A DNA stretch of 64,000 bases from a bacterium (GTDB taxonomy: Bacteria > SAR324 > XYD2-FULL-50-16 > G965216635). The notes under the pieces are model-generated. The model was not told the origin of the DNA. It ran no database searches and saw only the letters and a list, made by a program, of their open reading frames with translations. Both the position numbers and the translations under genes were made by a program. The stretch is taken from contig OZ244188.1 in NCBI GenBank assembly GCA_965216635.1, positions 219,205 through 283,204 of the forward strand, given 5' to 3'. Shown here piece by piece: positions 14,969-37,663 of this stretch; positions within the stretch are counted from its first letter, which is position 1; the number at the start of each line of letters is the position of its first letter.

Positions 14969-14969
14969 A

Positions 14970-16067: not shown

Positions 16068-16080
16068 CCCAACTGGATAA

Positions 16081-16371: not shown

Positions 16372-16459
16372 AAAAAACTGCCAACAACCAATAGTTTGCT
16401 ATTATTGTTTTTTTCTGCTAATTTTTATTTTAATACTAACATTTTCATTACAAATAATT

Positions 16460-17857
16460 ATGAAAAACATAAATTCCCAAGTTTTAAGGAAAACTTCAGC
16501 TGTTCGTTTTACTCTGGTTCGTTTCGTTTTGGCAGCTATTCTTATTCCCGCTATTCTTATAGGAAGTGCCTTTACTTTTGGAGGCAGTAATCTGCAAGCC
16601 CAAGCGAATGGTGGCAGCAAGCAGGGATTTTTCGCTGGTTTTGTCTATTTGAGTGGTTTTAAAGTGGATAGCACAAAAAAGGTCACCACAAATATCACAA
16701 CCACTGCAAACGCTATAACAGGCTATAGAATCACTGGCTCTTCAGACGCAACTTCTATAGTCGCCAACGTAGATGCCGTTTTTAATACTCAGATTAATGG
16801 TATTATTCATTATAACGGAGTAAAAGCTCTTTTGAAAGAGAGTTGTGAAACAGGAGTCACATCGGTTACAGCGTATGGTAGAACTTATAGTTATGGCAGC
16901 ATTGATCTGGATTCTTTTGATGCAGGCACAAGTAAAGGTGAAGGAACTAGTGTGACCACCACAAGTGATGGATCTGGCACGATAGTGCACAGTAATCAGA
17001 ATCTATTTCCTACGGGAACAAGAAATGATGGAGATGACACTAATTATTGTTTCACTTACTTTTTCGGTGATCTTTCCTCCGATAGAACCTCTATTACTCT
17101 TTCTGCTTATAAGGGGGTATCTGACGATTCAGAACCAACTACAACTGCTGTAATTGTGGATCCAACAGCAATCACTAGTAGTAGCAAGAGCGATAAAATC
17201 TCAGGTATTGGTCTGCAATTCGGCTTTAGGTGGGAAAAATGGAGAGCCTCCTTGACTCACTTTACTGGCAAGGGGGGAGATAACGAGCTCGCCAATACGC
17301 TAGTTATGGCGGATTATTTTGTAAACGAGGGTCTTTTTGTAGGAGGCGGTCTAGCGAGTATGAAGCTTACCAATGGCTCCGCCAGCGGCTCCGCCACAAG
17401 TCCAGCGCTTAGAGTCGGCTATAAGCAGAAATTAACCCCCAACCTATCGCTTAATTTTGGCTTGACTAAGTATATCTCGGGAGTTTCTCTAAAAAACAGT
17501 GTTACTACTAATAATACTACTACTGCTAATGCTAATGCTAATACTACTCCCATTGTGTTACGCTCTTTTGAAGAAACACAGACTCCTGACCGCGGCGATT
17601 CAGCAGTGGTTGGTGTTTCCAACATACGATTTGGTACCAGTCAAACTATTACCGCAAGATATTTTGTTGTACCTAGTACTCAAATGTTTGATAGTGATCG
17701 TAGAACACCAGTGACTCAAGTCCGCAGCAGAACTGTATATATAAACGAAATCCAGACTCCAGCAGGATCAGAAACTCAGACAACCACAACTACAGAAACC
17801 GATGCCGAACTCAAAGCACCACTCGTCATCAGCATCTCCTTCCACTTGAGTTTTTAA
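16460..17857 (+). CDS. Outer-membrane beta-barrel family protein with Thr/Ser/Asn-rich variable regions (paralog of 53281..54570)
   Basis: Start moved to MKNINSQ (16460) because the track start 16289 lies inside the MITE. Signal peptide ends NLQAQA. The C-terminal half (GLQFGFRWEKWRASLTHF...LVMADYFVNEGLFVGGGLA...LRVGYKQ) aligns with 53281 ORF. Terminal ...FHLSF. Confidence 0.6.
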   Translation: MKNINSQVLRKTSAVRFTLVRFVLAAILIPAILIGSAFTFGGSNLQAQANGGSKQGFFAGFVYLSGFKVDSTKKVTTNITTTANAITGYRITGSSDATSIVANVDAVFNTQINGIIHYNGVKALLKESCETGVTSVTAYGRTYSYGSIDLDSFDAGTSKGEGTSVTTTSDGSGTIVHSNQNLFPTGTRNDGDDTNYCFTYFFGDLSSDRTSITLSAYKGVSDDSEPTTTAVIVDPTAITSSSKSDKISGIGLQFGFRWEKWRASLTHFTGKGGDNELANTLVMADYFVNEGLFVGGGLASMKLTNGSASGSATSPALRVGYKQKLTPNLSLNFGLTKYISGVSLKNSVTTNNTTTANANANTTPIVLRSFEETQTPDRGDSAVVGVSNIRFGTSQTITARYFVVPSTQMFDSDRRTPVTQVRSRTVYINEIQTPAGSETQTTTTTETDAELKAPLVISISFHLSF

Positions 17858-17944: not shown

Positions 17945-18577
17945 ATGTATCAAAAAAAAGTTTATTTTTTAATTCTTTTGGTTGGGTTTTTCAGCACTTC
18001 TTTAGTTTTTAGCTGGGATAAGGAGTTTTTTGAAAATATTGAGCAACCTATTGCATTTCCTCATAAACTGCATACCGTCAACAATGGTATAAGCTGTGAG
18101 TATTGCCATTCTTCGGCTCGTAATTCTATAAATGCGGGAATTCCTCCCGTGAGAACCTGTATCGGCTGTCATGCTTTAGTAAAAGGTCGTAGCGAAGAAC
18201 AGAAAAAAGAAATCCAAAAAATCACGGATTATTGGCAGAAAAAAGAGCCTATTCCTTGGAAAAAAATACACGATTTACCAGATTTTGTTTATTTTTCGCA
18301 TAAAAGACATATCAAAGCAGGTTTTGATTGCACGAATTGCCACGGAGATGTATCGGAAACCAAGACTCCTGTTCCCAAACCTCTTTATGGGAAGACTCCT
18401 TTGAGTATGGGTTGGTGTATTAGCTGTCATCTTGACGATCATCCAGTGGATAAAAATGGCAAAATAATCACTCTTCCTCGTTTGACGCGTGGGGGAATAA
18501 GGCAGTATGATAAGCCGACTCCAAAAGCGGTTGGTGTAAAAAATGGGAGTTTGGATTGTTTAGTTTGCCACAAATGA
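17945..18577 (+). CDS. actA: Alternative complex III subunit A, pentaheme cytochrome c
   Basis: Five CxxCH motifs (CEYCH, CIGCH, CTNCH, CISCH, CLVCH), N-terminal membrane anchor, position upstream of actB. Confidence 0.8.
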   Translation: MYQKKVYFLILLVGFFSTSLVFSWDKEFFENIEQPIAFPHKLHTVNNGISCEYCHSSARNSINAGIPPVRTCIGCHALVKGRSEEQKKEIQKITDYWQKKEPIPWKKIHDLPDFVYFSHKRHIKAGFDCTNCHGDVSETKTPVPKPLYGKTPLSMGWCISCHLDDHPVDKNGKIITLPRLTRGGIRQYDKPTPKAVGVKNGSLDCLVCHK

Positions 18578-18637
18578 GAATCTTTGAATTAGATATTAAA
18601 CTTTGCATAACGCTAAAGATTTTAATAAAATAGAAAA

Positions 18638-20014
18638 ATGAAATATTTAAGTTTTTCATTAGAAAATTATAAAGGGATTAAAAAATTTTCAATTAATGTG
18701 GATCCAAACCAACCTATCTCGCTGGTAGGATTGAACGAGAGCGGTAAAACTACTATTTTAGAAGGTATAGACCATATAGGAAAACATTGTAAGCAATTAT
18801 CAACAAATAAGTTTCGGCAATTACTGAATAATGGAGAATTGGCAAAAGTAAGACCAAAAAAATTACCAGGTGTTTTTTTTAGTGATGAGATTAAATTTGC
18901 GTGTAAAGTTGTATGTGAAGAAAAAGTTTGCGAAATATCTTTTATCTATACTTTAGAAAAAGATAAAACCGCAGGCTACAAAGTGTTTTTTGATAAAGAG
19001 GAATTGAATTTTAAAGATGCTGATGTATTGGAAAAAATAAATAAATTTAGCGAAGAAATGCCAGAAATTATTTATTATTCTGATTTTACTCTTGAAGTTC
19101 CTCAAGAAATATTTTTTCATACAAATACTTATAAAAAAAAACAAACTCCAGGTATGTTGGCAAGTTTAGAAAGAGAAAATAAGAAATCCAATAACCCAGA
19201 ATGGCAAAAAATTTTACAGGATATAACGGATTCTCTATATTCTGAGGACGAAAAAGTGCTTTTTCAAGATGATATTGTAGATTATTTGGACGGTGACAAT
19301 ACTGGGGATGAAAATAGTTTTAGGGATAAGTTAACAGGTTTTAGCAGACATATAAACCAAAAAATCACCAAAAAATGGTTGCAAAGCCTACCAAAAAAAT
19401 CTTCTTTAAAAGAAATTGAATTTGTTTGTAATACAATGGAAAAAAATGCAAACACAAGAGAGTTTGCTTTTAAAGTTATCTCTAATGATGACGCTACATT
19501 TGATTTATCGGACAGATCTAAAGGCTGTAGGTGGTTTTTTGCTTTTATGTTATTTACAGAGTTTAGAAAATATAGAAAACAAAATACAATTTTTTTATTA
19601 GATGAGCCTGCTTCTAATTTACACTCTTATGTTCAAGAAAAAGTTATCCACGCTATTAATGAATTATGCGACGAAAAGACAGGCTCTATTGTTTTATATT
19701 CTACCCACTCTCCTTATTTACTAGATATAGAAAACGTAGAAACTATGTATCTTGTAGAAAATATCAATGCCTCTTCTGAGGTTAGGGAAGCAAGAATAGA
19801 AGTCAATTTATACACAGAAAACACTCGGGCAAGCAAGAAAGGAGAAGCGAAACCTATCTCTGATTATTTTCAGTTAAACTTGCAAAAAGTAATGAAATAT
19901 TTTGAAAAAAAAAATACTCCTAAAAAAATCGGAGCTATTGGTAAAAAATTTTTAGAAAATACAAGAAATATTAAAAATATAGCAGATGTGATTGAGTTTT
20001 CTAAGAATTTGTAA
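18638..20014 (+). CDS. Standalone ABC/OLD-family-type ATPase (AAA_15/AAA_21-like) inserted between actA and actB
   Basis: Walker A LVGLNESGKTTILEGI at the N-terminus; Walker B/D-loop IFLLDEPASNLH and H-loop YSTHSPYLLD near the C-terminus; no nuclease domain evident; 458 aa. Confidence 0.6.
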   Translation: MKYLSFSLENYKGIKKFSINVDPNQPISLVGLNESGKTTILEGIDHIGKHCKQLSTNKFRQLLNNGELAKVRPKKLPGVFFSDEIKFACKVVCEEKVCEISFIYTLEKDKTAGYKVFFDKEELNFKDADVLEKINKFSEEMPEIIYYSDFTLEVPQEIFFHTNTYKKKQTPGMLASLERENKKSNNPEWQKILQDITDSLYSEDEKVLFQDDIVDYLDGDNTGDENSFRDKLTGFSRHINQKITKKWLQSLPKKSSLKEIEFVCNTMEKNANTREFAFKVISNDDATFDLSDRSKGCRWFFAFMLFTEFRKYRKQNTIFLLDEPASNLHSYVQEKVIHAINELCDEKTGSIVLYSTHSPYLLDIENVETMYLVENINASSEVREARIEVNLYTENTRASKKGEAKPISDYFQLNLQKVMKYFEKKNTPKKIGAIGKKFLENTRNIKNIADVIEFSKNL

Positions 20015-20045
20015 TTTTTTGTTTATGATTTAAATATTAAAAAAA

Positions 20046-23000
20046 ATGTCCCATAATAATATTAAAAACAACAAAATAAAAAGAAGAGATTTTTTCAAAA
20101 TAGCTGCGACCAGTGGCGCTGCTGTAGCTGTAGCCAGCTGTAATAATGACCCTGTAGAAAAAATACTCCCTTCTTTATTGCCTCCAGACAATTACCAAAC
20201 TGGTGTAGCTTTACATTTTGCTTCTGTATGCCAAGAATGTCCTTCTCAGTGCGGCATAGTAGTCAAAACTCGCGAAGGTAGGGCTATTAAAATTGAAGGC
20301 AACCCTAATCACCCTCTCAATCAAGGCAAACTTTGTGCTATAGGACAATCTGCTTTGCAAGGTTTATACAGTCCTAATCGCATTAAAAAAGCGACCCAAA
20401 AAGGCAAACAGCTAGATTTAGCAACAGCCAAAAACGAATTTTATGGCAAAATAAAACGTCTAGTCGCAGAAAACAGAGGCAAAGAAATTCTGTTTATTAG
20501 CCCCGCTGGAGATAGCAGTCTGCAAAGAATGACTACTAAAATTATTTCCCGTCTTGGAGCCTCCCAAATTCAGTTGGACTTGAGTTCTGCTAATTCCATC
20601 AAAAACGCAAACAAAATTTTGTACGGGAAAAACGAAGTTCCAGATTACCAATTTTCAAAAGCAAACTTTTTACTCAATTTTGGAGCAGATTTTTTGGAAG
20701 GCTGGCTTAATGTGATGAAAAATTCTAGAGAATTTGCCGAATTTCATTCTTACAAAAGAAAAAACAAAAACGAGTATGTGCATATTTCACCTCATCTTTC
20801 TACGACTGGTGTACAAGCAGACGATTGGATAAACTGCCCTTCCAAAGCAGAAGAAGCGATTGCACTCGCTTTGGTAGCCCGTCTGGCAGCTAGCAATTCT
20901 TCTCTTTCTGCAGCGGAAAAAAGGATTATCCGTAGCTATACTAAAAACCACAACATTGCCGCTGTGGCGAAAAAATACCAGCTAGATGCAAAAAAATTAG
21001 AGCAGATTGCCAAAAAACTAGCTACTAAAAGTAGCCTGATTATTGGAGGCGGTAATGCTACTTCCAACGGAGAGCAAACAAAACTGCAAATAGCGATTGC
21101 TCTTTTGAACTATCTTACTGGAAATACAAATCTAAACTTTGGAGCAGATTATAAATTTGGAGGCAGTAGCTTTGCAGAAATCAAGAAGGCTGTTCAAAAA
21201 ATAAAAAATAAAAAATATAGCCTAGTCGTAATTTTAGAGTTAAACCCTGCTTATATTTTTTCTATTTTCTCCGAATGGTCGGATAAAAAAGAAATTCAAG
21301 GAAAAGTTCCCATAGTGAGTTTGTCTCTGTCTCATAGCGAGACCACCGAGCAAGCGGATTTAGTAATTCCCATCACTTCCAGTTTTGAAAATTGGGGAGA
21401 TAGTTTTGCTGCCAATGGAATTTACGCTTTGCAGCAACCAGTAATGGCAAAGTTGCCGGGTTTTGAAGCAGAGCCTTTGGGAGATATTTTGCTTGGTTTG
21501 ACAAAAGAATTAGGCTGGAGCGGAGATAATTTTGAAGCTGCTGATTTTAAAAATTATTTAAGAAGTCAATGGAGAGGGCTACAAACCCAACTGAAATATG
21601 TAGGCACTTTTGAAATGTTTTGGATAGCTGCTTTGAAAAAAGGAGGGATTTTTCAAAATTATACTCCACAAAGAGCGAGTTTAAAAACCAATGCTTTGGC
21701 ACAGCTTAACGCTAGCGAAACAAAAACAGCTAAAGGCATTTCTTTAATGGTCCTAAATTCTAATTTGCATTCTAACGACGGCAGAACGGGGGATAGATAC
21801 TGGCTTTTAGAAATTCCCCATCCTTTAACGCAGGTCGTTTGGGATTCTTGGCTAGAAATTAACCCCGATAAAGCACAAGAATTAGGTATTCAACATTTAG
21901 ACGAAGTGGAAGTTACTACTTCTGCGGGCAGTGTCAAATTAGCTGCCTATATTTATGATTTTATAGATAAAAATACAGTTGCCATTCCAGCGGGCATGGG
22001 TAGAAGTTTGAAATTTCCTAACTATTCTTCCAGAAGAAACAGTATTTTACCATTCAAAGGTGGGCATAAAAGGACAAACCTTGTAGAAAAAAAGGTAGGC
22101 TTGAATCCTTTTGAATTGATTCCTTTTGCGACTGATGATTCTGGAGAGCTGATTTTTTCTGCAGAAAATATTAGTCTTAAAAAGACTGGAAAAAAATCTT
22201 TTTTGGTCAGCAGCGATGGGCAGTATAAAGACGATTCCAAAGCTCTTATTGCTGATACACCTACTGGTTACGGAGATAGAAGCCAAAAAGGAAGGCATTT
22301 GATTAGGTCAGTTTCTTTGAAGGAATTGAATTCTGGCAAAATCCACAAAGAAGGACACCAACTCAAAGATAGATTTTATACTACCGATAGACAAAACACC
22401 CACGATTTTTATAAGGAAAAAAGGGACGGTTTAGATAATCATATTTTTGGAATAAAGGGAAGTAAAACAGGAAAATACTACGACCCCTACAAGTTTGAAA
22501 TGAGTATAGATTTAGATAAATGCACGGGTTGTTCTGCTTGTGTGGTTGCCTGCTACGCCGAAAATAATATTGCAGTGGTCGGTAAAGAAAGACAGGCTAT
22601 CGGCAGGGAAATGTCTTGGCTTAGAATAGAAAGATACTTAGACAAAGATAAAAAAACCGGAAAAATCCAAGCGCTTTTATCGCCGCAGATGTGTCAACAG
22701 TGCGGCAACGCAGGTTGCGAAGCAGTCTGCCCCGTTTATGCAACTTACCACAACCCTGATGGACTCAACGCACAGATTTACAACCGTTGCGTTGGCACTA
22801 GATATTGTGCCAATAACTGCGTTTATAAACAAAGAAGATTTAACTGGAGAAGCTATAGTTTTCCATCTCCTTTGCATTACCAACTTAACCCCGATGTTAC
22901 TGTTCGCGACAAAGGAGTAATGGAAAAATGCACCTTTTGTGTGCAAAGAATTGTAGCTGCAAAAGATAAGGCTAAGGACGATAACCGAATTGTTTTTGAC

Positions 23001-23180
23001 GGAGAAATCAAAACAGCGTGTCAGCAAACCTGTCCGACAGAGGCAATTGTTTTTGGCAATGCGATGGATAAAAAATCTTTGCTTACAAAAACAAAAAAAG
23101 ATATTCGCGGCTATCACCAACTAGAAGAATTGAATTTTCAACCTGGGGTTACCTATCTCAGTAAAATAAAAAGAGGGTAA
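20046..23180 (+). CDS. actB: Alternative complex III subunit B (molybdopterin-oxidoreductase-like domain fused to 4Fe-4S ferredoxin domain)
   Basis: Tat signal KRRDFFKIAATSGAAVAVASC. 1044 aa. C-terminal Cys clusters CTGCSACVVAC, CQQCGNAGCEAVCP, CVGTRYCANNC and CTFCVQRI. Confidence 0.85.
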   Translation: MSHNNIKNNKIKRRDFFKIAATSGAAVAVASCNNDPVEKILPSLLPPDNYQTGVALHFASVCQECPSQCGIVVKTREGRAIKIEGNPNHPLNQGKLCAIGQSALQGLYSPNRIKKATQKGKQLDLATAKNEFYGKIKRLVAENRGKEILFISPAGDSSLQRMTTKIISRLGASQIQLDLSSANSIKNANKILYGKNEVPDYQFSKANFLLNFGADFLEGWLNVMKNSREFAEFHSYKRKNKNEYVHISPHLSTTGVQADDWINCPSKAEEAIALALVARLAASNSSLSAAEKRIIRSYTKNHNIAAVAKKYQLDAKKLEQIAKKLATKSSLIIGGGNATSNGEQTKLQIAIALLNYLTGNTNLNFGADYKFGGSSFAEIKKAVQKIKNKKYSLVVILELNPAYIFSIFSEWSDKKEIQGKVPIVSLSLSHSETTEQADLVIPITSSFENWGDSFAANGIYALQQPVMAKLPGFEAEPLGDILLGLTKELGWSGDNFEAADFKNYLRSQWRGLQTQLKYVGTFEMFWIAALKKGGIFQNYTPQRASLKTNALAQLNASETKTAKGISLMVLNSNLHSNDGRTGDRYWLLEIPHPLTQVVWDSWLEINPDKAQELGIQHLDEVEVTTSAGSVKLAAYIYDFIDKNTVAIPAGMGRSLKFPNYSSRRNSILPFKGGHKRTNLVEKKVGLNPFELIPFATDDSGELIFSAENISLKKTGKKSFLVSSDGQYKDDSKALIADTPTGYGDRSQKGRHLIRSVSLKELNSGKIHKEGHQLKDRFYTTDRQNTHDFYKEKRDGLDNHIFGIKGSKTGKYYDPYKFEMSIDLDKCTGCSACVVACYAENNIAVVGKERQAIGREMSWLRIERYLDKDKKTGKIQALLSPQMCQQCGNAGCEAVCPVYATYHNPDGLNAQIYNRCVGTRYCANNCVYKQRRFNWRSYSFPSPLHYQLNPDVTVRDKGVMEKCTFCVQRIVAAKDKAKDDNRIVFDGEIKTACQQTCPTEAIVFGNAMDKKSLLTKTKKDIRGYHQLEELNFQPGVTYLSKIKRG

Positions 23181-23231
23181 ACATCAAATTTTGCCTATGC
23201 TTTGTCTAACGCCTAATTTAAAAATAAAAAA

Positions 23232-23921
23232 ATGGTAGAAGTGAATCTAGAACACAAATCGGATGAGCAATTTGATAAAGAGTTGAGTGAAAAAAAAGTT
23301 ACCCCTAACCTACAAAATATAGGTTATTTACCTTGGATTGGAAAGGATTATGCTGACTTGCCTGACAAAAATAAAATTTTTATTCTTGGCGAAAGTGTTT
23401 ATAATGGTTGGAATCCTGATAAAAACGCTTCTAGAGATATAATAAATGGTCACGCAATAAAGACAAATCCTAGTCGTCTTTTTAGAAATATGAGTTGGGC
23501 TATTTGTGGAGAAAAAAAAAAGAAAGAGTTAAATCCAAAAGAGTTTTGGAGTAAAGTTTGTTTTAATAATTTGGTGCAAACTAAAATGAAAACTAAGAAG
23601 TATAGACCTTCTACAAGTGATTATGAAAATGGAACTGAATATATTGCAAAACAAATAGATATATTAAAACCTGCTTTAGTTATTTGTTTTAATAATTCGG
23701 ATGTAGCTAATTCTTTTAAAGAAATATTTGCTGACGCTAAATTAGAAGTTAAAGAAAAAGTAGGTAGAATAAAACCAAAAATACTAACAGCAAACAAGCT
23801 AAAAATATTATTTATTAAACACGCTAGTAGTTATTTTAGTTGGAGCAAATGGAATGAGTTTATAAATAAAAATGCAAAAGAAAATATTGATTGCTTTCAA
23901 TCATTAGAAAATACAAACTAA
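23232..23921 (+). CDS. Hypothetical protein (cargo between actB and actC)
   Basis: 229 aa, no confident family. Weak resemblance to uracil-DNA-glycosylase-superfamily motifs (ILGESVY...; HASSYFS). Confidence 0.3.
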   Translation: MVEVNLEHKSDEQFDKELSEKKVTPNLQNIGYLPWIGKDYADLPDKNKIFILGESVYNGWNPDKNASRDIINGHAIKTNPSRLFRNMSWAICGEKKKKELNPKEFWSKVCFNNLVQTKMKTKKYRPSTSDYENGTEYIAKQIDILKPALVICFNNSDVANSFKEIFADAKLEVKEKVGRIKPKILTANKLKILFIKHASSYFSWSKWNEFINKNAKENIDCFQSLENTN

Positions 23922-23930
23922 GTTTTAAAA

Positions 23931-24062
23931 TTAAAAAATGCTAACCTACGAAAAAATTGATAATGATTTTTTATAATTTATGCTAGAATGTATTTTTAAT
24001 AAACTAAAAAACCAAAATGAATAAAACTATAATCACTTTTTGCGATAAAGGAGGCGGACTGC
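23931..24062. repeat. Duplicated actC 5' end (about 35 bp incl. ATG) plus about 95-bp element-end sequence, copy 1
   Basis: aaaaaatgctaacctacgaaaaaattgataatgat + tttttataatttatgctagaatgtatttttaat...gcgataaaggaggcggactgc; compare real actC start at 27583-27620. Confidence 0.8.
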
Positions 24063-24139
24063 CTTAAAACTAAATTTTGTGCTTTTAAAATTAAAGTTAT
24101 AGACTGTGCTATACTGCAAAATAAAAGATAAATATTATT

Positions 24140-24619
24140 ATGGAAAAACAAAATGTATTGAGTGTGGCGGATTTTTTTATCACAGAAGTTGATAAAAAGT
24201 ATGGTGTAGATAATTTAAAATTAAACAAAATAGCCTATATCTCTTTAGGATTTTCACTATCTATACGGAATTTTGATTTATTTTCTGAAGATGTAGAAGC
24301 TTGGAATTGGGGTCCGGTAATTCCAGAATTGTATTATTCTTTTAAAGAATATGGCTCTAGGATTATTACTAAGCCTTCTGAAAGAGAAAATTCAAGTGAG
24401 ATAAAAGATGAAGATACTTTGGGTTTGTTGAATCTAGTAAAAGATCTTTATCAAAGTAAGAGTGGGTTAGAAATTATGGAATTGACTCATGTAAAAAACA
24501 CACCTTGGGATTATTGTTATGATGGAGAAAAAAATACAATTATAGATAAGAATATTATTAAAGATTACTATGATATTCTTATAAAAAACTTAAAAAAAAG
24601 TAATATTCTTATAGATTAG
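24140..24619 (+). CDS. Panacea-domain (DUF4065, SocA/PanA-like) antitoxin
   Basis: AWNWGPVIPELYYSFKEYGS matches the W.GPV....Y hallmark of DUF4065. Paralogous to the 195-aa protein at 39866..40453 (shared NLKLNKIAY, EAW.WGPVIPE.Y). Confidence 0.7.
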   Translation: MEKQNVLSVADFFITEVDKKYGVDNLKLNKIAYISLGFSLSIRNFDLFSEDVEAWNWGPVIPELYYSFKEYGSRIITKPSERENSSEIKDEDTLGLLNLVKDLYQSKSGLEIMELTHVKNTPWDYCYDGEKNTIIDKNIIKDYYDILIKNLKKSNILID

Positions 24620-24623
24620 TTTT

Positions 24624-25031
24624 ATGGTAAAATGTAATACTAAAGAAAAATTTTTATACTCAAAAGTTAGTGATGATAGTTCTGTAAGTGAATCCAAAGA
24701 AAAATTTAAAGCATCTGCTCCGATCAAGACAGAGATAAGTAAAGAATTTGAAGAGACGATAAGTAAAGAATTTGAATTGCTATATAACAATAGATTTAAA
24801 CAAGATACAGAATTAAGTAAAGATTTCTTTTACTTTGCTAAAGAAATTACTGGTTGGTGGATATTGATTTTATTTATAGTCTTATTGTGGCAATTATTTT
24901 TACCATTTGAAGGATACGGACAACGACTTTCTGATATTCAATTTTCTGTATTATTCAGCACTACTACTGTAACAGTGCTTGGTTTTTGGGGAATAGTTGG
25001 TTTGTATTTATTTCCTAAAAAAGGAAAATAA
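24624..25031 (+). CDS. Small membrane protein, candidate toxin partner of the Panacea antitoxin
   Basis: 135 aa, starts 4 bp after the antitoxin stop. Soluble charged N-terminal half, then two TM helices (WWILILFIVLLWQLF; VLFSTTTVTVLGFWGIVGLYLF). Confidence 0.45.
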   Translation: MVKCNTKEKFLYSKVSDDSSVSESKEKFKASAPIKTEISKEFEETISKEFELLYNNRFKQDTELSKDFFYFAKEITGWWILILFIVLLWQLFLPFEGYGQRLSDIQFSVLFSTTTVTVLGFWGIVGLYLFPKKGK

Positions 25032-25047
25032 AAAATAATTTTAATAA

Positions 25048-25177
25048 ACAAAAAATGCTAACTTACGCACAAATTGATAAGGATTTTTTATAATTTATGC
25101 TAGAATGTATTTTTAATGAACTAAAACCAAAATGAATAAAACTATAATCACTTTTTGCGATAAAAGAGGCGGACTGC
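25048..25177. repeat. Duplicated actC 5' end plus element-end sequence, copy 2
   Basis: aaaaatgctaacttacgcacaaattgataaggat (identical to real actC start) + ttttttataatttatgctagaatgtatttttaatgaac...gcgataaaagaggcggactgc. Confidence 0.85.
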
Positions 25178-25610
25178 AGAAAACCAGAATTTGTGATATT
25201 TTTGAAATAAGGATTGTTACTTACTCAACAGTTTAATAGCAATACTTTCAGGCGTAGAGTTATTTATTTTGACATCTGGAATTTGGATTGCTTACTCTAG
25301 TATTCAATCCCATAAAAACAGGCAAATTTAACCATTTTTGCACAAAAATCGCCTTTTTTAATTATTTAATTCTAAAAAAAAACTTTTTGTAAATGCTTTA
25401 AAAATCTTATAAAATTCCTTGAATTAAGGAAAATATTGAATTTTTGTGAAAAAAAAGTTACTATTTTAATAAATTTATTAAAAACAATAAACGGATTTTA
25501 AGACTTTTTGGGGCGGTTGTTAAGAATGGTTTTAAATTTCCTTCGTTAAAGTTTTATATCATAAAAACTAAAACAGACATATTTCTTTGTCTGTGCGTAA
25601 TAAATAAAAT

Positions 25611-26132
25611 ATGGAACAAAGAAAAGTTGAGTTTCTTTTAGAATATCAACAAAGAATAGATCAAAAAGCTAGAGAGAACTCTAGTGAGTTGATTTCTAAC
25701 GGAACCATTGAACACGCTAGAATCTTAATTGCTTCTATTTTTAGTGTTGCAAATAAAAAAATAGAAATATTTACAGGATTTCTTAATCCAATAATCTACA
25801 ATGATAAAAAAATCATTGACAGCGCCTTTAATTTTCTAAAAAAACAAAACACTAAAATAGAAGTTGTAGTGCAAGAAAATGACCACTCATTAGGTTTGAA
25901 TGAATTTGTGAATGAAGCTAAGAATAATAAACAATTTGTTCTTAAAGAAGCAAATGAAATTGATAAAAATGAACAGTATCATTTTATAGTTGCTGATAGT
26001 AAATCATTCCGTTATGAACCTGATAAAGCAAAAAATATAGGTATAGGTTGTTTTAACAAACCAGCATTTGCTGAGAAACTTAATAATCGCTTTCAAGAAA
26101 TATTTAAACAAGCAAAAACGCTGGAAATTTAA
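25611..26132 (+). CDS. Hypothetical protein (cassette cargo)
   Basis: 173 aa, no recognisable family; preceded by an about 400-bp AT-rich leader with a hairpin acagacatatttctttgtctgt. Confidence 0.35.
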   Translation: MEQRKVEFLLEYQQRIDQKARENSSELISNGTIEHARILIASIFSVANKKIEIFTGFLNPIIYNDKKIIDSAFNFLKKQNTKIEVVVQENDHSLGLNEFVNEAKNNKQFVLKEANEIDKNEQYHFIVADSKSFRYEPDKAKNIGIGCFNKPAFAEKLNNRFQEIFKQAKTLEI

Positions 26133-26147
26133 AAGAAAGAATATTCT

Positions 26148-26714
26148 ATGGATTTTTTTTATATTATAGAAATTTCTTTTTTATTAAATATAGCTTATAG
26201 AGAGCTAAAATCTTCTCGTTGGAAGCAAGAATTTGAGAAAAAATATTCTACTTATTTCAACGCATTTGAGATGACAGAATCTATTGGTAGAGATATTCTA
26301 AAAAAAGATAATCTGTTCCAACCAGAAGGAAAACAGTTTGTTGAGGGATTAGAAAAAGGGGAAAAGAATGCTTGGGAGAACAAATTTTTTATTCCTTTTT
26401 ATTACCGCAATTTTATTTGCAAAGAATGGAGTAAAAAATTTACTGGTTGTATTATATTAGGTATAATTATTATTATAGGAATATTGTATTTTTTTGCAGG
26501 ATATAATTATTATATTTACATAAAAAACACTTCCTTTGTCGCATTTTTAATCTTTTCTATGTGCCCTTTTATTTTTAGTTTTTTTGATAATCGGTGTTAT
26601 AATTATTTATTTGGTGATAATGGAAGAATAGAATTTATTATAAAAGAAATAACAAGAAAAAATAAATCTATGATGGATGATGAGCTAGATTTACCAGAAA
26701 GAGCATTAAAGTAA
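26148..26714 (+). CDS. Hypothetical membrane protein (cassette cargo)
   Basis: 188 aa; central hydrophobic segments (FTGCIILGIIIIIGILYFFAG; SFVAFLIFSMCPFIFSFF); 16 bp after the preceding ORF. Confidence 0.35.
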   Translation: MDFFYIIEISFLLNIAYRELKSSRWKQEFEKKYSTYFNAFEMTESIGRDILKKDNLFQPEGKQFVEGLEKGEKNAWENKFFIPFYYRNFICKEWSKKFTGCIILGIIIIIGILYFFAGYNYYIYIKNTSFVAFLIFSMCPFIFSFFDNRCYNYLFGDNGRIEFIIKEITRKNKSMMDDELDLPERALK

Positions 26715-26799
26715 TTAACTTACCAACCTCTTATATCCTTACCATTTTTATACCGATTCCTTAAAAATACTCTTCAATAAAAAAACAAATAAATGAAAA

Positions 26800-27048
26800 A
26801 TGGCTAGTTTAGCAGAAAAAGAGGTAGATGCAAATTTTGATTATTTTCAAACACTACTTCCAGAATTAAAACAAACTCACTTTGAAAAATTTGCTTTATT
26901 GCATAAAAAAAAAATTATTGAATTTTTTGATACTGCTAGAGATGCAGCAAAGTTTGGGATAGTAAAATTCGGAAAAGGCAATTTTTCTGTGCAACAAGTA
27001 GCTGATAGACGTGTTGATTTAGGATATCAAGGACATGTCCTCTTTTAG
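26800..27048 (+). CDS. Small hypothetical protein overlapping the downstream aspartic protease gene
   Basis: 82 aa; 14-nt overlap with 27035..27538 suggests translational coupling. Confidence 0.35.
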   Translation: MASLAEKEVDANFDYFQTLLPELKQTHFEKFALLHKKKIIEFFDTARDAAKFGIVKFGKGNFSVQQVADRRVDLGYQGHVLF

Positions 27049-27538
27049 GCAAACTTTAAATAAAAACAGGCAGTTTATTATTACTGTAAAAGTTATTGAG
27101 TCACCTTTGGAAAAAGAGAAATACAAAGACGGCACAGCACAAAGATTTCTTATTAAGGCGGAAACTCAAAAAGCTTTGATTGATACAGGTGCTAATACGA
27201 CTAGTATATCTCAAAAATATGCGAATGAATCAGGTTTAGTTGCTACTGGAAAAACCATTACAAGTACTGCTGGAGGAGATTGTAGAGAAAATTTATTTTT
27301 GATTGATATTGCTATTCCGATTACTCAAACTGCATTAAAACCTTTTACAGCAAAAGACGGTAGTCAGCAGTTTAAACCATTTATAATTGGAGAAGAACAT
27401 TGGGCTCACGCAGAACTTGAGGTTACTTCTTTTGCAGTTGGTGAAGGATATTATGGTTTTGATATTCTTTTAGGTATGGATATACTATCTCAAATGCATA
27501 TTACTATGTTTCATAATGAGATTATTATGTCTTTTTAA
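27035..27538 (+). CDS. Retropepsin-like (clan AA) aspartic peptidase
   Basis: ALIDTGANTTSIS contains the D-T/S-G-A catalytic motif in a hydrophobic-hydrophobic-D-T-G-A context; about 170 aa, typical of single-domain bacterial retropepsins. Confidence 0.55.
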   Translation: MSSFRQTLNKNRQFIITVKVIESPLEKEKYKDGTAQRFLIKAETQKALIDTGANTTSISQKYANESGLVATGKTITSTAGGDCRENLFLIDIAIPITQTALKPFTAKDGSQQFKPFIIGEEHWAHAELEVTSFAVGEGYYGFDILLGMDILSQMHITMFHNEIIMSF

Positions 27539-27588
27539 AAAATTGTAAAATTTATTACACAAGTTTTCTTAATTTTAAAAAATAAAAA

Positions 27589-28935
27589 ATGCTAACTTAC
27601 GCACAAATTGATAAGGATGTTTTAAAATCAATGGAGCCACCCGGCAAAAAATGGTTTTTGTGCATCGCAGTTTCTTTGACCGCTTTGGCTATGGGGATTT
27701 ATGCCCTTTATATCCAAGTTGCCGGAGGACTAGAGATTAGCGGAATTTCGCATCCTATTGGTTGGGGAGTTTATATTACTGACTTTGTTTTTTGGGTAGG
27801 TATTGCACACGCGGGAACCTTAATTTCTGCAGTGCTTTTTCTAACGCGAGCTCCTTACAGAACTTCTATCTATAGAACTGCAGAGGCGATGACAGTTTTT
27901 GCGGTAATGACGGCTGGGCTTTTTCCTATTATCCATGTAGGGCGGATTTGGAACGCCTACTGGTTAGTGCCTTATCCCAATCAAAGAGAGCTTTGGGTCA
28001 ATTTCAAATCTCCGCTCCTTTGGGATGTTTTTGCGGTTTCTACCTATATGTCGGTTTCCATTGCCTTTTTTATTGTAGGGTTGATTCCAGACTTTGCCAC
28101 AGTGCGAGATCGCACCAAAGGTTTGATGAAATTTTTTTACGGGTTTTTGGCATTAGGCTTTAGAGGCACCAATCACCAGTGGGTGCATTATTTGAGAGGC
28201 TACCTACTTTTTGCAGCACTGGCTACTCCTCTAGTTTTTTCCGTTCACTCCATAGTCTCTTGGGATTTTGCAATGTCTAGTATACCGGGCTGGCATACCA
28301 CAATTTTTGCTCCTTACTTTGTAGCAGGTGCGATTTTTTCGGGCTGTGCTATGGTCTTGACGATTGTGATTCCTATGAGAAAAATTTTTAGAGGCTTTGA
28401 AGAAATTATAAAAATAGAACACTTAGAGGCTTTGGGTAAACTGATTTTACTCACGGGAACGATTGTAACCTATTCTTACACCATAGAATTTTTTATTGCC
28501 TATTATAGCGGTAATCCTTACGAAAAAGCTATTTTTTGGTTTCGCCCTTTTGGAGAATTAAAGGGATTTTTCTGGTTGATGGTGCTTTGTAATTGTATTG
28601 GTCCCATTCCCCTTTGGAGAAAGAAAATTCGCACCAATCTCGCTGCTCTTTTTGTGATTTCTATTATTGTCAATGTAGGTATGTGGTTGGAAAGATTTAA
28701 CATAGTCGTCACTTCGCTGTCTCACGATTTTGTGCCTTTTGTTTGGAGCAACTACCAGTTTCAGTGGGGCGAAATTTGGATTACTATCGGTAGTTTTGGT
28801 TGGTTTTTCACTTGGTTTTTTCTATTTGTTAAAATTATGCCTTCTATGTCGGTTACAGAATTGAAGGAAGCATTGCCTCCAATGTTGCGAAAAGGTAAAA
28901 TGACACCTAGGCCAGTTTCTGGCTTCTATAAATAA
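27589..28935 (+). CDS. actC: Alternative complex III subunit C (NrfD/PsrC-like polytopic membrane subunit)
   Basis: 448 aa, about 10 TM helices, positioned between actB and actDEF. Confidence 0.8.
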   Translation: MLTYAQIDKDVLKSMEPPGKKWFLCIAVSLTALAMGIYALYIQVAGGLEISGISHPIGWGVYITDFVFWVGIAHAGTLISAVLFLTRAPYRTSIYRTAEAMTVFAVMTAGLFPIIHVGRIWNAYWLVPYPNQRELWVNFKSPLLWDVFAVSTYMSVSIAFFIVGLIPDFATVRDRTKGLMKFFYGFLALGFRGTNHQWVHYLRGYLLFAALATPLVFSVHSIVSWDFAMSSIPGWHTTIFAPYFVAGAIFSGCAMVLTIVIPMRKIFRGFEEIIKIEHLEALGKLILLTGTIVTYSYTIEFFIAYYSGNPYEKAIFWFRPFGELKGFFWLMVLCNCIGPIPLWRKKIRTNLAALFVISIIVNVGMWLERFNIVVTSLSHDFVPFVWSNYQFQWGEIWITIGSFGWFFTWFFLFVKIMPSMSVTELKEALPPMLRKGKMTPRPVSGFYK

Positions 28936-28937
28936 AT

Positions 28938-29080
28938 TAGAGACCTTTGAATTAGCGTTCTGTTTAGCCTATGCGTCGTTGAAAAAAATTTTTAACTCTT
29001 GAAATACTTGAGTATTCCTGCGAGCTAAATTTTTTTTTTGCCTTGCCTAGCCGTCACATAACGCAAATTCAAAGGTCTAT
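28938..29080. mobile_element. MITE-like repeat (about 143 bp) between actC and actD
   Basis: tagagacctttgaattagcgttctgtttagcctatgcgtcgttgaaaaa...ttgccttgcctagccgtcacataacgcaaattcaaaggtctat; clear inverted termini. Confidence 0.8.
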
Positions 29081-29097
29081 AAATTTTACTAAAAAAA

Positions 29098-29628
29098 ATG
29101 AATAAAAAATTTTGCGGAGTTTGGGCAACTTTTGAATATTTAGACGACTTTTGCAACAGCGTAAAAGATTTGCGTAGCAAAAATTTTAAAAAAATCACTA
29201 CCTATTCGCCTTGCCCTCGTCATGAGATTTTGGACGCTTTGGGTAATCCAGTGAGTAGAGTGCCTTTTTTCACTTTAGCGTTTGGAATTTTAGGAGTAAC
29301 CATAGCCTATACTTTAGCAAGCTGGATGTCGCTGGATTGGGTTTTACCAGTGTCTAATAAACCGATTGTGTCTCTTCCTCCGTTCACTATTATAGCTTTT
29401 GAATTAATGGTGCTTTTGGGAGCCTACGGCACTATGGTTGGAGTTGTTTTTTTGATAATCCGAGAAACTAGAAAATTTACTTTCCCGAAAAGTAATAAAT
29501 TCAAAAACTACGACAGATTTACCCACGATAGGTTTGGTTTGGTAGTGCGGTGCAAAAAAAAAGATATTAAAAAATTGATACAAATTGTCAAAATACATCA
29601 ACCAGAAGAAATCAACAATGAAAGTTAA
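29098..29628 (+). CDS. actD: Alternative complex III subunit D (small membrane subunit)
   Basis: 176 aa, two TM helices, operon position. Confidence 0.65.
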   Translation: MNKKFCGVWATFEYLDDFCNSVKDLRSKNFKKITTYSPCPRHEILDALGNPVSRVPFFTLAFGILGVTIAYTLASWMSLDWVLPVSNKPIVSLPPFTIIAFELMVLLGAYGTMVGVVFLIIRETRKFTFPKSNKFKNYDRFTHDRFGLVVRCKKKDIKKLIQIVKIHQPEEINNES

Positions 29629-30199
29629 AAAAAGATTTTTGGCTACAGTTCTTGCTATAGCTCTCTGCGGTTTGATTTTTACGGTTTCCGCTTATGGCAC
29701 TTCCACGATTTGGTCTTGGATGAAGGATATGTATAACCAACCGAGCATCAAACCTCAAGAAGAAGGTTCTTTTAAACATTTTCCTATTGGCTCTGTTACA
29801 ACAGAAGGCTTGCAAATTAGTAGTGATGGAGAAAAGCACTTAAAAGCAACAGATTTTACTTGGATAGCTGCCAGAAATAGTGTTGCACTAGCTCCCAAAA
29901 ATCCTCAAAAAGCAACGGCAGAATCTTTGAAGCAAGGAGAGTTTTTTTTTAATTCTTACTGTATTGCCTGCCACGGGGCAGATGGTAAATCAACCACTCC
30001 TGTAGCTCTTTTTAGAGGAGGAGTTATTCCTTTAGATTTGATTTTAACCGACCCTACTATTACCGACGGCTACCTTTTTTACAAAATTACTTATGGAGGT
30101 TTTGGAGATGTAGCTATGCCTCCTTTTGGCTATTCCATCACAGAAAAAGAAAGATGGCACATAGTAAATTATATAACCCATAGATGGCAGAACAAATGA
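29618..30199 (+). CDS. actE: Alternative complex III subunit E (monoheme cytochrome c)
   Basis: Single CIACHG heme motif. Signal peptide starts at MKVKKRFLATVLAIALC, so start placed at 29618 rather than track 29585 (either overlaps the actD stop). Confidence 0.7.
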   Translation: MKVKKRFLATVLAIALCGLIFTVSAYGTSTIWSWMKDMYNQPSIKPQEEGSFKHFPIGSVTTEGLQISSDGEKHLKATDFTWIAARNSVALAPKNPQKATAESLKQGEFFFNSYCIACHGADGKSTTPVALFRGGVIPLDLILTDPTITDGYLFYKITYGGFGDVAMPPFGYSITEKERWHIVNYITHRWQNK

Positions 30200-31521
30200 C
30201 AAGAGAACAAGAAATAAAAAATATTCTACAGAAAATTTCTTTTAAGCTAGATTCTAAAGCAAAACTTTCTTTATTTGTTTTGTTTGGGGTAGGGGTTGTA
30301 GGACTATTACTAGGAATTTTTACTGGCCATTTAGAGTTGGCTTGGCAAGCCTTACTTATCAACAGTATTTATTTTACTGGAATAGGCTACGCTGGACTGG
30401 CATTTTCTGTGATTTTTACTATCAGTGATGCATTTTGGGGCAGACCCATCAAACGCATTGGAGAAGCTTTCGCTAGTTTTATTCCTATAGGCACTATTAT
30501 CTTTTTTATTTTGTTTTTTGCAGGCAATTCAATCTTTGAATGGTATGATCACGACAAGGTCATCCACTCCAAAGAAGGCTGGCTCAATATTCCTTTTTTT
30601 GTTGGTAGAAATCTAGTACTTTTCTTGTTTTCTGCTTGGCTTGCTTCCCTTTATCTTAAAAACTCTATCCGCCCTGATATAGTCTTGGCTAGAAAAATGG
30701 GGGATTATTTTAAAAATAAGTTTGCTGATAAATTTGTCAAAAACTTCTGTGACTCTGAAAAAGAAATTGAAACTGCTTACCATAAAAACAAAAGAATAGC
30801 ACCTGTATTAGCTTTAACTTACGCCCTTTTGACTTCATTTATTGCCTTTGATTGGATGATGTCCATTGATCAAGAATGGTTTAGCACTATGTTTGGAGTG
30901 CAGTTCACTGTCTCTAGCTTGATGGGAGCAGGCGCTTTTTTGATTATAATTACTGGAATTCTTCGCAGAAAATTCCAACTTACAGATTATCTTTCTATCA
31001 ATCGTCACCACGATTTAGCAAAACTCACCTTTGCTTTTTGTCTACTCTGGACCTATATGATTTTTTCGCAAGTCCTTGTGATTTGGTATGCTAATTTGCC
31101 TGAGGAAACTCCATTTTTGGTTTTAAGAATGTTCTCATTAGAATGGGGTTGGCTCTTTTGGGTTATTTTCTTTATGCTTTTTATTACTCCTTTTTTTGGT
31201 TTAATGGCTCGTACTGCCTGCTGCTCTATTTGGTTTTCCAGACTGGTTGCTTTCATTATTTTGAGCGGACTTTGGCTAGAAAAATATTTTATCATAACCC
31301 CCTCGCTACAAGAAAATGCACTCGTGGCTGGACATGCTGTATCGCATGGAGCAGCCTCTATTGAAAAAGTAGCAGGTTTTGAATTTTTTCCTTTCCTTGT
31401 GGATTTGTTTGTAGGTATGGGATTTTTAGGAATTTTCTTAGGCTGTTTCTTCTTCTTTATCCAAAGAGTTCCTCTCGTTCCTATCTCTGACTACCGTTTC
31501 TTTAAAGACGGGCATCACTAA
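30184..31521 (+). CDS. actF: Alternative complex III subunit F (NrfD-like membrane subunit)
   Basis: 445 aa polytopic membrane protein, overlaps the actE stop. Confidence 0.7.
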   Translation: MAEQMTREQEIKNILQKISFKLDSKAKLSLFVLFGVGVVGLLLGIFTGHLELAWQALLINSIYFTGIGYAGLAFSVIFTISDAFWGRPIKRIGEAFASFIPIGTIIFFILFFAGNSIFEWYDHDKVIHSKEGWLNIPFFVGRNLVLFLFSAWLASLYLKNSIRPDIVLARKMGDYFKNKFADKFVKNFCDSEKEIETAYHKNKRIAPVLALTYALLTSFIAFDWMMSIDQEWFSTMFGVQFTVSSLMGAGAFLIIITGILRRKFQLTDYLSINRHHDLAKLTFAFCLLWTYMIFSQVLVIWYANLPEETPFLVLRMFSLEWGWLFWVIFFMLFITPFFGLMARTACCSIWFSRLVAFIILSGLWLEKYFIITPSLQENALVAGHAVSHGAASIEKVAGFEFFPFLVDLFVGMGFLGIFLGCFFFFIQRVPLVPISDYRFFKDGHH

Positions 31522-31562: not shown

Positions 31563-32438
31563 ATGGAAATTACTAGTGGTCTTATTATTGGGGTAGCTCT
31601 TGTAGCTACTGTACTTTTCACACTTTATTTGGGGGTCAAAATAGTTCCTCAATCTGAAGTATTTGTTATCGAGCGATTTGGAAAATATACTAAAACTCTT
31701 TCCTCTGGGTTGTCTTTGATTGTCCCTTATTTGGATCGGGTGGCTCATAGAGTTTCTGTTCTTGAACGGCGTTTAGAAGAATTTGATGTTTCGGTCATCA
31801 CTAAAGATAATGTTGAAGTTGGATTGAGCACTTCTGTTTTCTATCGCGTTATTGATGCTTCGCGATCTGTGTATCGCATTCGCAATATTGATGGGGCTAT
31901 TTATACAGCAGCAGCTTCTATTGTGCGCTCGGCTGGTGGTAAGCTAGAATTAGACGAATTGCAATCTAGCCGCGAGGCTATGAATGCAGAAATTTCTAAA
32001 AACTTGGGCGAAGCTGCGGAAGTTTGGGGAATTGAAATTACTAGAACGGAAATCACTGATGTGCAAATAGACGAGCAAACCAAAAACGCACAAAGACAAC
32101 AACTTAATGCTGAAAGAGAACGGCGAGCCGAAATTGCCCGTGCTGAAGGTTCAAAAAAATCTGCCGAACTATCTGCTGAAGCTTCTCTTTACACAGCTCA
32201 GAAGTCCGCTGAAGCAGTTATAGTAAAAGCGGATGCAGAATCCCATCGCGTCCGTGTAGAAGGAGCGGCTGCGGCTTCTGTGATTGAAATACAAGGTAAG
32301 GCTCTTAAGAGTAATGAGAAAATTATTGAATTGGAAAAAGCTCGTAGCTGGGATGGAGTTTTGCCTACAACTAATGTTGGAGGCGATAGTGGGGCTAATT
32401 TCTTGTTTGAATTGAAATCTAGTAAAAGCAAAAAATAA
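31563..32438 (+). CDS. SPFH/band-7 (stomatin/prohibitin-like) membrane protein
   Basis: N-terminal TM helix, then an SPFH core (VPQSEVFVIERFGKY...) and an Ala/Glu-rich coiled-coil tail. Confidence 0.8.
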   Translation: MEITSGLIIGVALVATVLFTLYLGVKIVPQSEVFVIERFGKYTKTLSSGLSLIVPYLDRVAHRVSVLERRLEEFDVSVITKDNVEVGLSTSVFYRVIDASRSVYRIRNIDGAIYTAAASIVRSAGGKLELDELQSSREAMNAEISKNLGEAAEVWGIEITRTEITDVQIDEQTKNAQRQQLNAERERRAEIARAEGSKKSAELSAEASLYTAQKSAEAVIVKADAESHRVRVEGAAAASVIEIQGKALKSNEKIIELEKARSWDGVLPTTNVGGDSGANFLFELKSSKSKK

Positions 32439-37643: not shown

Positions 37644-37663
37644 ATTTTGAACTTTTTGAAAAG

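Follow-up and report, generated by a model that had tools for sequence, protein, structure and literature searches.

Accessory cassettes and duplicated gene starts within the alternative complex III operon of a SAR324-type bacterium

The act operon and its interruptions

The window analysed here is a stretch of 64,000 nucleotides from a SAR324 bacterium (NCBI GenBank assembly GCA_965216635.1, contig OZ244188.1, positions 219,205 to 283,204 of the forward strand; all positions below are those of the window). It contains the genes of the respiratory alternative complex III (ACIII), actABCDEF, separated at three consecutive junctions by DNA of another kind. A preliminary description of this DNA had proposed that accessory insertions split the operon, and the six act genes are indeed all present, intact and on the forward strand. 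Open reading frames (ORFs) were annotated with Pfam and NCBIfam profiles, and defence-type genes with PADLOC. L025, a related contig to which we refer repeatedly, shares 82-89% nucleotide identity with the window over the act genes, with a synonymous divergence (dS) of 0.63-0.91.

The first gene, actA (17945-18577), encodes a short pentahaem cytochrome c subunit of 210 amino acids (aa) with a Pfam Cytochrome_C7/c3 match and five CxxCH motifs; it is 90% identical to protein P0135 and its ratio of nonsynonymous to synonymous divergence (dN/dS) against L025 is 0.07. It is followed by actB (20046-23180), a fused molybdopterin-like/4Fe-4S subunit of 1044 aa that matches Molybdop_Fe4S4, Molydop_binding, Fer4_7/11 and TAT_signal and carries the Tat signal motif RRDFF. 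Homology with the L025 gene begins 27 nt inside actB, the two strains differing in the first codons. The quinol-interacting NrfD-type membrane subunit is encoded by actC (27589-28935, 448 aa, Pfam NrfD 4e-22), with 95% aa identity to L025 and a dN/dS of 0.04. The last three genes follow one another without interruption (dN/dS 0.10-0.14): actD (29098-29628, PF11821 at 5e-39), actE (from an ATG at 29618 or a TTG at 29585 to 30199; monohaem cytochrome c, Cytochrome_CBB3 2e-10, one CxxCH motif) and actF (30184-31521), an NrfD-like paralogue of ActC. ActF and ActC cross-match at about 21% identity at every locus, and both show 8-11 transmembrane-like segments. By these matches, all six ACIII subunit types are present in the canonical order, with their diagnostic features. 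The NCBIfam models for the related Qrc complex score under their cut-offs, and since ActD and ActE are also present the complex is an ACIII rather than Qrc. Across the act genes dN/dS ranges from 0.04 to 0.14 and every ORF is intact and in frame over each junction: these genes are held by strong purifying selection.

The intervals between them measure 1,468 nt (actA/actB), 4,408 nt (actB/actC, with eight genes) and 162 nt (actC/actD), that is 6,038 nt altogether. The earlier estimate of about 6 kb of foreign cargo on the same strand is thus borne out by length, by a G+C content of 0.23-0.30 in both large intervals against 0.35-0.42 in the act genes, and by duplicated actC starts at the cassette boundaries.

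Cargo between actA and actB

A degenerate fragment (CTTTGAATTAG ... CATAACGC, 18579-18620) of a miniature inverted-repeat transposable element (MITE) family, with a match at 18579 resembling the family's terminal inverted repeat (TIR), starts right past the actA stop codon and forms the left edge of the first insertion. The single cargo gene (18638-20014, G+C 0.29) encodes a 458-aa ATPase of the ABC/SMC-head type, and its matches to AAA_15 (7e-19) and to the PADLOC AriA profile (1e-22) span the full length of the protein. In an AlphaFold2 (AF2) model with a predicted local distance difference test (pLDDT) score of 86, the top structural matches in the PDB are the retron I-A and Septu PtuA ATPases, together with SMC heads. 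The nearest homologues are all 440-480 aa long and the remote ones are OLD-family nucleases of about 600 aa; a 53% identical homologue at L032 also stands alone, among metabolic genes. The ATPase had been described as an orphan. It is solitary, as stated, but it is not a broken gene: by its length and matches it belongs to a stand-alone short subfamily of the OLD/AriA/PtuA defence class. No Toprim or HNH nuclease domain or partner was identified in the protein, at the locus or in L032, and membership in PARIS, OLD or Septu was rejected on this ground although the ATPase fold is there. Searches of plasmids by tblastn retrieved distant AAA ATPases only.

Cargo between actB and actC

The second interval is an array in which actB is followed by a spacer, a glycosylase-fold gene, a first boundary unit (pseudo-actC start, left end and box), a toxin-antitoxin (TA) pair, a second boundary unit, a set of four genes and finally actC. 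The 51-nt spacer (23181-23231, blastn end-points) is conserved and common to L025 and L026. Homology with the relatives breaks off precisely at 23232, the ATG of the first gene of the cargo, and returns 19 nt before the actC ATG.

This first gene (23232-23921) encodes a 229-aa protein previously listed as hypothetical. Its family has 604 cluster representatives, and Pfam gives a weak UDG match (8e-5). Its AF2 model (pLDDT 90) retrieves TDG, family-4 UDG and UdgX with Foldseek (E 6e-6, TM-score 0.45-0.5), so that the label hypothetical can be replaced: the protein is predicted to have a divergent uracil/thymine-DNA-glycosylase superfamily fold, at low sequence identity.

The first boundary unit comprises pseudo-actC start no. 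1 with its left end TTTTTATAATTTATGCTAGAAT (23919-24007), matching the first ~30 nt of actC at 26 of 30 positions, and box copy 1 (24008-24077), a repeat of about 60 nt that reads as the micro-ORF MNKTIITFCDKGGGLP followed by a stop. Next comes the TA pair, already recognized as such in the preliminary description: a Panacea antitoxin of 159 aa (24140-24619), whose SocA_Panacea domain scores 1.5e-11, and a putative membrane toxin of 135 aa (24624-25031) with two C-terminal transmembrane segments, which matched no Pfam family. The partner is homologous to those of the two pairs found in L025, the antitoxins being 27-57% and the toxins 40-44% identical to those of the window. The Panacea gene and its adjacent co-directional small gene, conserved as a pair in three cassettes, fit the Panacea-type arrangement of a type II TA system.

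The second unit is formed by pseudo-actC start no. 2 with its left end (25036-25122), 30 of 30 positions being identical to the true start, and by box copy 2 (25123-25192), a repeat of the first box. The last block (25193-27569, G+C 0.25-0.27) begins with about 420 nt of non-coding DNA. Its four ORFs (25611-27538) encode a DUF7931 protein (25611-26132, Pfam), a 188-aa protein with two transmembrane segments (26148-26714), an 82-aa protein called here orf82 (26800-27048) and a retropepsin-like aspartyl protease (27035-27538, Pfam). The product of orf82 is 72% identical to that of an 86-aa gene of L025, located there on the opposite side of the TA pair: cassette modules have also been shuffled.

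Duplication of the actC start at cassette boundaries

The true actC initiation region (27570-27633, with the ATG at 27589) is the repeated, attachment-site (att)-like segment of the array: it recurs at 23919-23982 and 25036-25099. An exact 30-nt repeat of the actC start, ATGCTAACTTACGCACAAATTGATAAGGAT, lies at 25055, where none is expected by chance, and the other copy lies at 23938. L025 has a pseudo-actC copy of its own, at position 5916. All pseudo-actC copies depart from actC at one point, after GAT(G)TTTT, and run past this breakpoint into a common left end, TTTTTATAAYTTRTGCTAKAAT, with -10-like hexamers. The duplicated part thus includes the ribosome-binding region and the first codons of the downstream gene. 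A comparison of two relatives adds what looks like a before and after pair. In L028 the true start of actC lies immediately next to the tail of an orf96-type gene; that identical tail in L025 adjoins a pseudo-actC start, beyond which additional cassettes and finally actC follow. To judge from these two junctions, they look like the two states of a single insertion.

The box occurs four times in the two genomes, twice in the window (micro-ORFs 24017-24067 and 25132-25236) and twice in L025 (5514-5570 and 6277-6335), each time preceding a different set of cargo genes. Three of the four copies read ...II(T/I)xCDKGGGLP before a stop, several of the differences between copies are synonymous, and the general form is MNK(T/I)II..CDKGGGLP followed by a stop. 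The box is probably the relic start of another gene or a leader micro-ORF encoding a leader peptide, or else it could have a regulatory role. A search for the gene from which the box peptide derives, in all of the sequences compared from the window and the relatives, gave none. A structured RNA was considered and rejected for the box and the boundaries, where no significant RNA or DNA fold was obtained; Rfam gave no match in the cassette boundary region, box included, at E values up to 1.

A second island between comM and thyA

The same architecture is observed on the reverse strand at 38613-47656, between comM (46082-47656) and thyA (38613-39446). The cargo of this second island amounts to 6.6 kb with a G+C content of 0.25-0.32, is entirely co-oriented with thyA and includes a GmrSD type IV restriction enzyme (40866-42569), a Panacea antitoxin (39866-40453) paired with a 99-aa YafQ/RelE-like toxin, and, between comM and the outer pseudo-thyA copy, two DNA methyltransferases with a 327-aa gene. 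The thyA start is present three times as a 148-nt segment, the true one at 39335-39482 and two pseudo-copies at 40751-40898 and 42842-42989. This segment takes in the 36 nt ahead of thyA and the initial 112 nt of the gene, and its coding part is 100% identical in all three copies. At CTAGACA both pseudo-copies are joined to a duplicate of the 3' tail of comM; the sequence of this tail is also found at the far boundary of the island at about 46.1 kb; the duplicated part at thyA therefore includes the 3' tail of the upstream gene as well. In L023, where PCMT, mur, comM and thyA are adjacent, comM is separated from thyA by 19 nt, and the short stretch of similarity that the comM tail shares with thyA (at about +105), the place of the hybrid joints, is present in this empty junction already.

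A duplication of the junction thus accompanies each cassette boundary at both actB|actC and comM|thyA. Both this signature and the second island are additions to the preliminary description. The phenomenon had been presented as a matter of the act operon. As the thyA locus bears the same signature, the accretion of cassettes with junction duplication is instead a property of the whole genome.

Two further observations concern this region. A forward-strand ORF (orf116) in the thyA island was discarded as spurious in favour of the reverse-strand YafQ/RelE-like ORF. About 0.6 kb from thyA and adjoining folB, tandem tRNA-Met(CAT) genes (37589-37985) lie in a 152-nt direct duplication whose copies are 95% identical and separated by 245 nt, maybe another duplicated attachment site or a plain tRNA duplication.

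Contiguous and variable junctions among relatives

ActC was used to scan 185,579 species genomes, and 21 loci were retrieved. Nearest to the window is L001, the 1.6 Mb chromosome of a metagenome-assembled genome (MAG) with 85% ActC identity; the others are SAR324-type MAGs at about 60% and one Bacteroidota MAG at 49%. Homologues named SAR324 show 75-77% identity for ActC and 57% for ActA. Exact look-ups of the ActC of the window and of protein P0131, which is encoded on a public contig of 2.39 Mb, gave no record. The preliminary description had taken Bacteroidota and Chloroflexota for comparison; the nearest relatives are in fact SAR324-type MAGs, and the organism is SAR324-like rather than a member of the Bacteroidota. 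Its statement that act genes are normally contiguous is confirmed: they are adjacent and without homologues of the cargo at every one of the 21 genome-collection loci that is long enough to judge (L001 and the Bacteroidota MAG included), as well as on the metagenome contigs L023 and L024 (86-87% ActC identity).

The closest cluster consists of 107 ActC sequences with more than 90% identity, mostly from a single sample of the European Nucleotide Archive (ENA; ERZ26869290). Contigs of this sample are often palindromic fold-backs that repeat the act segment in opposite orientations and probably arose as artefacts of amplification or of long reads. Only local junctions were used from L022 and L026-L029, which are such fold-back chimeras. 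L025 carries a Panacea antitoxin with a 118-aa toxin between actA and actB; a 96-aa gene, an 86-aa gene and a Panacea antitoxin with a 108-aa toxin between actB and actC; and an N6/N4 DNA methyltransferase with a 188-aa gene between actC and actD, after which actD, actE and actF follow. On a second contig, L030, actA is likewise followed by a TA pair. A single gene of 87-89 aa separates actB from actC in L026 and L029, an orf96-type gene directly abuts actC in L028, and a MORN-repeat gene follows actC in L028 and L022. The Panacea pair has a dS of 1.65 between the window and L025, about twofold that of the act genes (~0.8).

A conserved interruption shared by the relatives, which would point to an old gene order, was sought and not found, since those with more than 90% ActC identity carry other genes or empty junctions. 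The junctions actA|actB, actB|actC and actC|actD are therefore variable insertion hotspots whose cargo turns over between relatives, rather than parts of an old fixed order. In scans of JGI metagenomes neither the box nor the att-like pattern of actC was matched, and viral contigs gave no match to the box, to actC and thyA fragments or to relatives of Panacea; the strain diversity described here thus comes from one ENA sample and a few MAGs only.

A proposed mechanism for cassette accretion

We regard as the best explanation, and as somewhat probable, that cassettes accumulate at these junction hotspots by an additive capture driven by homology or microhomology, the cargo being expressed by read-through. 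The incoming DNA would consist of a cassette plus a copy of the junction and would enter by a single crossover within that junction. It could have been looped out as a circle between two copies of the junction, or stem from an exchange between chromosomes that was unequal. New cassettes would be added in tandem beside the downstream gene, whose intact 5' end would be restored each time. The driver is most likely homology or microhomology rather than an integrase encoded by the element, since the duplications are long and differ between the two sites, the thyA joint falls on a pre-existing microhomology and no integrase was found. Indeed no recombinase or integrase was detected in the cargo or in the 29 other window ORFs scanned with Pfam, a scan that left aside six ORFs of at least 100 aa.

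The transcription of the operon through its cargo is plausible, given that the cargo is co-oriented and that a scan of the act region gave no convincing forward-strand terminators at the cassette boundaries. About 12 cassettes, counted over the window and the relatives, all share the orientation of the genes that flank them (P about 2e-4 under random orientation). Transcription might also be aided by the -10-like elements at the left ends, which, with a promoter-like site at 27459-27486, are candidate internal promoters. If read-through occurs, the cargo would be both expressed from and sheltered by an indispensable operon, which would explain why such sites are favoured.

Several points weigh against this explanation. 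An integrase may lie elsewhere in the genome of about 2.4 Mb, of which 64 kb were seen, and the proposed route of integration is deduced from its end-products, no circles or empty-site molecules having been observed. The three pseudo-actC copies have one left end in common and could all stem from one event that was then duplicated, so that an identical breakpoint is no proof of crossovers that recurred independently. Across the junction, both genomes have an imperfect palindrome, GCACAAATTGATAA-7 nt-TTATAAYTTRTGC, which would suit a site-specific recombinase acting in trans. Neither the ATPase insertion at actA|actB nor the cargo of L025 at actC|actD shows a clear junction duplication, and both may have arrived by another route; a search for duplicated actB or actD starts like those of actC returned only A-rich similarities of about 15 nt that could be due to chance. 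The promoter scan found 59 sites where 53 were expected, which is not above chance in AT-rich DNA. Many of the comparison contigs come from one sample and include fold-back chimeras, which restricts their use to local junctions.

Some of these points lead to the main alternative, which we consider possible although rather unlikely: the cassettes would be remnants or satellites of site-specific integrative elements, resembling tycheposons, integrative mobilizable elements (IMEs) or cis-mobilizable elements (CIMEs). A tyrosine or serine recombinase encoded elsewhere or on a helper would act on an element site (attP) mimicking the 5' end of actC or thyA, older cassettes being pushed outward. Tandem arrays with repeated att copies are a hallmark of additive and tycheposon islands; the pseudo-actC copies share the same breakpoint nucleotide and the same left end in two genomes separated by a dS of about 0.8; and the palindrome at the joint, 13-14 bp and imperfect around a centre of about 7 nt, is present in both. 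Against this, the L025 and L030 contigs are, like the cargo and the other window ORFs scanned with Pfam, devoid of a recombinase; the duplicated segments are unlike in length and in sequence (about 64 nt at actC, about 200 nt at thyA); the thyA joint coincides with a microhomology that comM and thyA already possessed; and fragments of actC or thyA are in none of the viral contigs scanned. A motif, ACAAA(A)TT(T)GAT, occurs in the 64 kb only at the actC and thyA junction copies; having been chosen post hoc, it was not used as evidence.

Two other explanations are very improbable. The first takes the interrupted order to be old and fixed, with the genes in between serving ACIII as accessory subunits or regulators specific to the lineage. 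In its favour, all of the cargo has the orientation of the act genes and is packed closely among them, and a small ORF (36-89 aa) recurs between actB and actC in several relatives. Against it, these small ORFs are not homologous across lineages; the cargo, which 23 relatives lack and which varies between the nearest, has a low G+C content and belongs to TA, defence or phage-associated families; and the pseudo-actC starts mark insertion events. The second, equally improbable, is an artefact of assembly or binning with chimeric joins through repeats, a concern raised by the fold-back structure of L022 and L026-L029. The repeat copies are diverged (86-97%) rather than identical, L025 and L030, which are independent contigs, show a like architecture, a public contig of 2.39 Mb encodes a protein 100% identical to the ATPase, and the act ORFs remain intact and in frame at all junctions. 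Capture by an integron integrase at an attI-like site can practically be dismissed: the cassettes are small, co-oriented, apparently promoterless and in tandem, but there is no IntI-like gene among the scanned ORFs, the boundaries lack an attC-type fold (z -0.6 to +1.0), and the repeated unit copies the start of the downstream gene in place of a cassette-specific attC.

Returning to capture driven by homology or microhomology, a broader and more tentative proposition, which we think doubtful as it stands, would be that a recombinase-independent (or trans-acting) process targets the initiation regions of conserved, highly expressed genes, duplicates them, and uses both operon transcription and the copied starts to express TA and defence genes. 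If so, this process would function like an integron built from operon junctions, without the integron machinery, and junctions flanked by indispensable genes would be safe harbours for a strain-level defence repertoire in small marine genomes.

Comparison with known systems

Additive islands, a concept of Rodriguez-Valera, consist of tandem cassettes parted by partial copies of an attachment site, usually the end of a tRNA gene, as in the tRNA-Lys island of 'Ca. Methylopumilus' (PMC10872708). The tycheposon islands of Prochlorococcus also contain tandem cassettes with partial attachment-site copies (bioRxiv 10.1101/2020.12.28.424599). The islands described here resemble both by a strain-variable tandem cargo at one conserved site with recurring partial copies of it, by newer arrivals that push older ones outward, and by low G+C accessory genes in a small, marine-type genome. 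They differ in several respects. The site that recurs is a 5' end belonging to a protein-coding gene and not the 3' end of a tRNA gene; one of the islands interrupts a respiratory operon, in which three hotspots adjoin one another; the ORFs scanned within the 64 kb include no integrase; the duplicated segments are 64 to ~200 nt long, those of thyA being joined at a microhomology of the flanking genes; and all of the cargo is co-oriented with the flanking operon. Assignment to the tycheposons was rejected: these are recognized by an element-encoded tyrosine or large serine recombinase together with a replication module and by a tRNA or tmRNA target, and neither type of gene is in either island.

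Insertion at the 5' end of a protein-coding gene, with supply of a replacement 5' end, and the accumulation in tandem of integrase-less derivatives flanked by att sites are features shared with the integrative and conjugative elements (ICEs) and CIMEs. SXT/R391 integrates into the 5' end of prfC, and accretion of ICEs and CIMEs is known in streptococci. Those elements are large and encode a tyrosine integrase, whereas the cassettes here measure 0.7-2.5 kb and have no mobility genes. The islands also resemble core-genome defence hotspots, with strain-variable TA, restriction-modification, GmrSD and OLD/PtuA-type ATPase genes at a few recurrent core-gene junctions. Defence hotspots usually lie between transcription units; here three adjacent ones lie between the cistrons of one operon.

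Panacea antitoxins pair promiscuously with unrelated toxins (PMC8832971; PMC10440598). As in the described systems, a Panacea protein of about 160 aa is encoded directly upstream of a small, unrelated putative toxin gene; the partners, a membrane protein with two transmembrane segments at act and a YafQ/RelE-like protein at thyA, fit the reported promiscuity.

Compared with the ACIII of Rhodothermus, Flavobacterium and Chloroflexus, the same six subunit types occur in the same canonical order, but this order is split by 6 kb of unrelated genes, ActA is short and the lineage is SAR324-like. A full-text literature search returned no description of TA or defence genes interrupting an ACIII operon. 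Multi-subunit respiratory operons are thought to resist interruption, their subunits being needed together. For SAR11 it is reported that rearrangements occur less often inside operons than between them (PMC2217521). In the present operon, three cistron junctions in a row serve as strain-variable landing pads for TA and defence genes, in the midst of respiratory genes under purifying selection. The duplicated gene starts record the order of insertion and provide a search rule for hidden mini-islands in uncultured bacteria with small genomes, namely pseudo-copies of the start of a gene located upstream of that gene.

The MITE family

The actC/actD interval is occupied by a MITE (28936-29085, forward strand) with the TIR (T)ATAGACCTTTGAATT, placed between the actC stop and the actD start; this junction is empty in L026 and L027. 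As the preliminary description had it, the element is a MITE: its inverted arms are 59 nt long (28934-28992 and 29027-29085), they fold into a hairpin of -43 kcal/mol (z = -6.0), and the window has 20 instances of the terminal motif (0.37 expected) and about eleven paired copies. On these sequence features the element is a genuine member of a dispersed family. It may be speculated that its hairpin attenuates or stabilises the transcript between actC and actD.

The family, which also resembles repetitive extragenic palindromic (REP) elements, is found at about 20 sites of the window in several length variants of ~70-390 nt, often clustered between genes, for instance between hemH and a 522-aa ORF. 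Sites lie at 14756-16382 and, among others, at 2779-3170, 8702-8780, 10910-11254, 42597-42667, 56863-57165 and 63859-63945. The family has no Rfam entry; Rfam at the gathering threshold identified two tRNAs only in the whole window.

Flanking regions and minor features

In the relatives L023, L030 and L001, greA lies directly upstream of actA, and L023 is collinear over PCMT-mur-comM-thyA-greA-actA. The window is without greA, and its PCMT-thyA block is inverted about 20 kb downstream. The region upstream of actA (14877-17857) carries instead hemH and the 522-aa ORF, which has no Pfam match and an unusually high G+C content of 0.42-0.44.

Directly after actF, a SPFH/Band-7 gene and an 88-aa membrane protein gene (31563-32704) form what we take to be an NfeD-like pairing. 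L025 and L027 have a gene of 154-155 aa at this place, followed in L027 by a restriction-modification system, so that the region downstream of actF is also variable.

Short tandem arrays are present at 53254-53397, 48185-48268, 49692-49793 and 10331-10486, with periods of 18, 12, 14 and 39 nt. Some are intragenic, for example in a 429-aa ORF at 53281 and in a 482-aa ORF at 9425 resembling an outer membrane protein.

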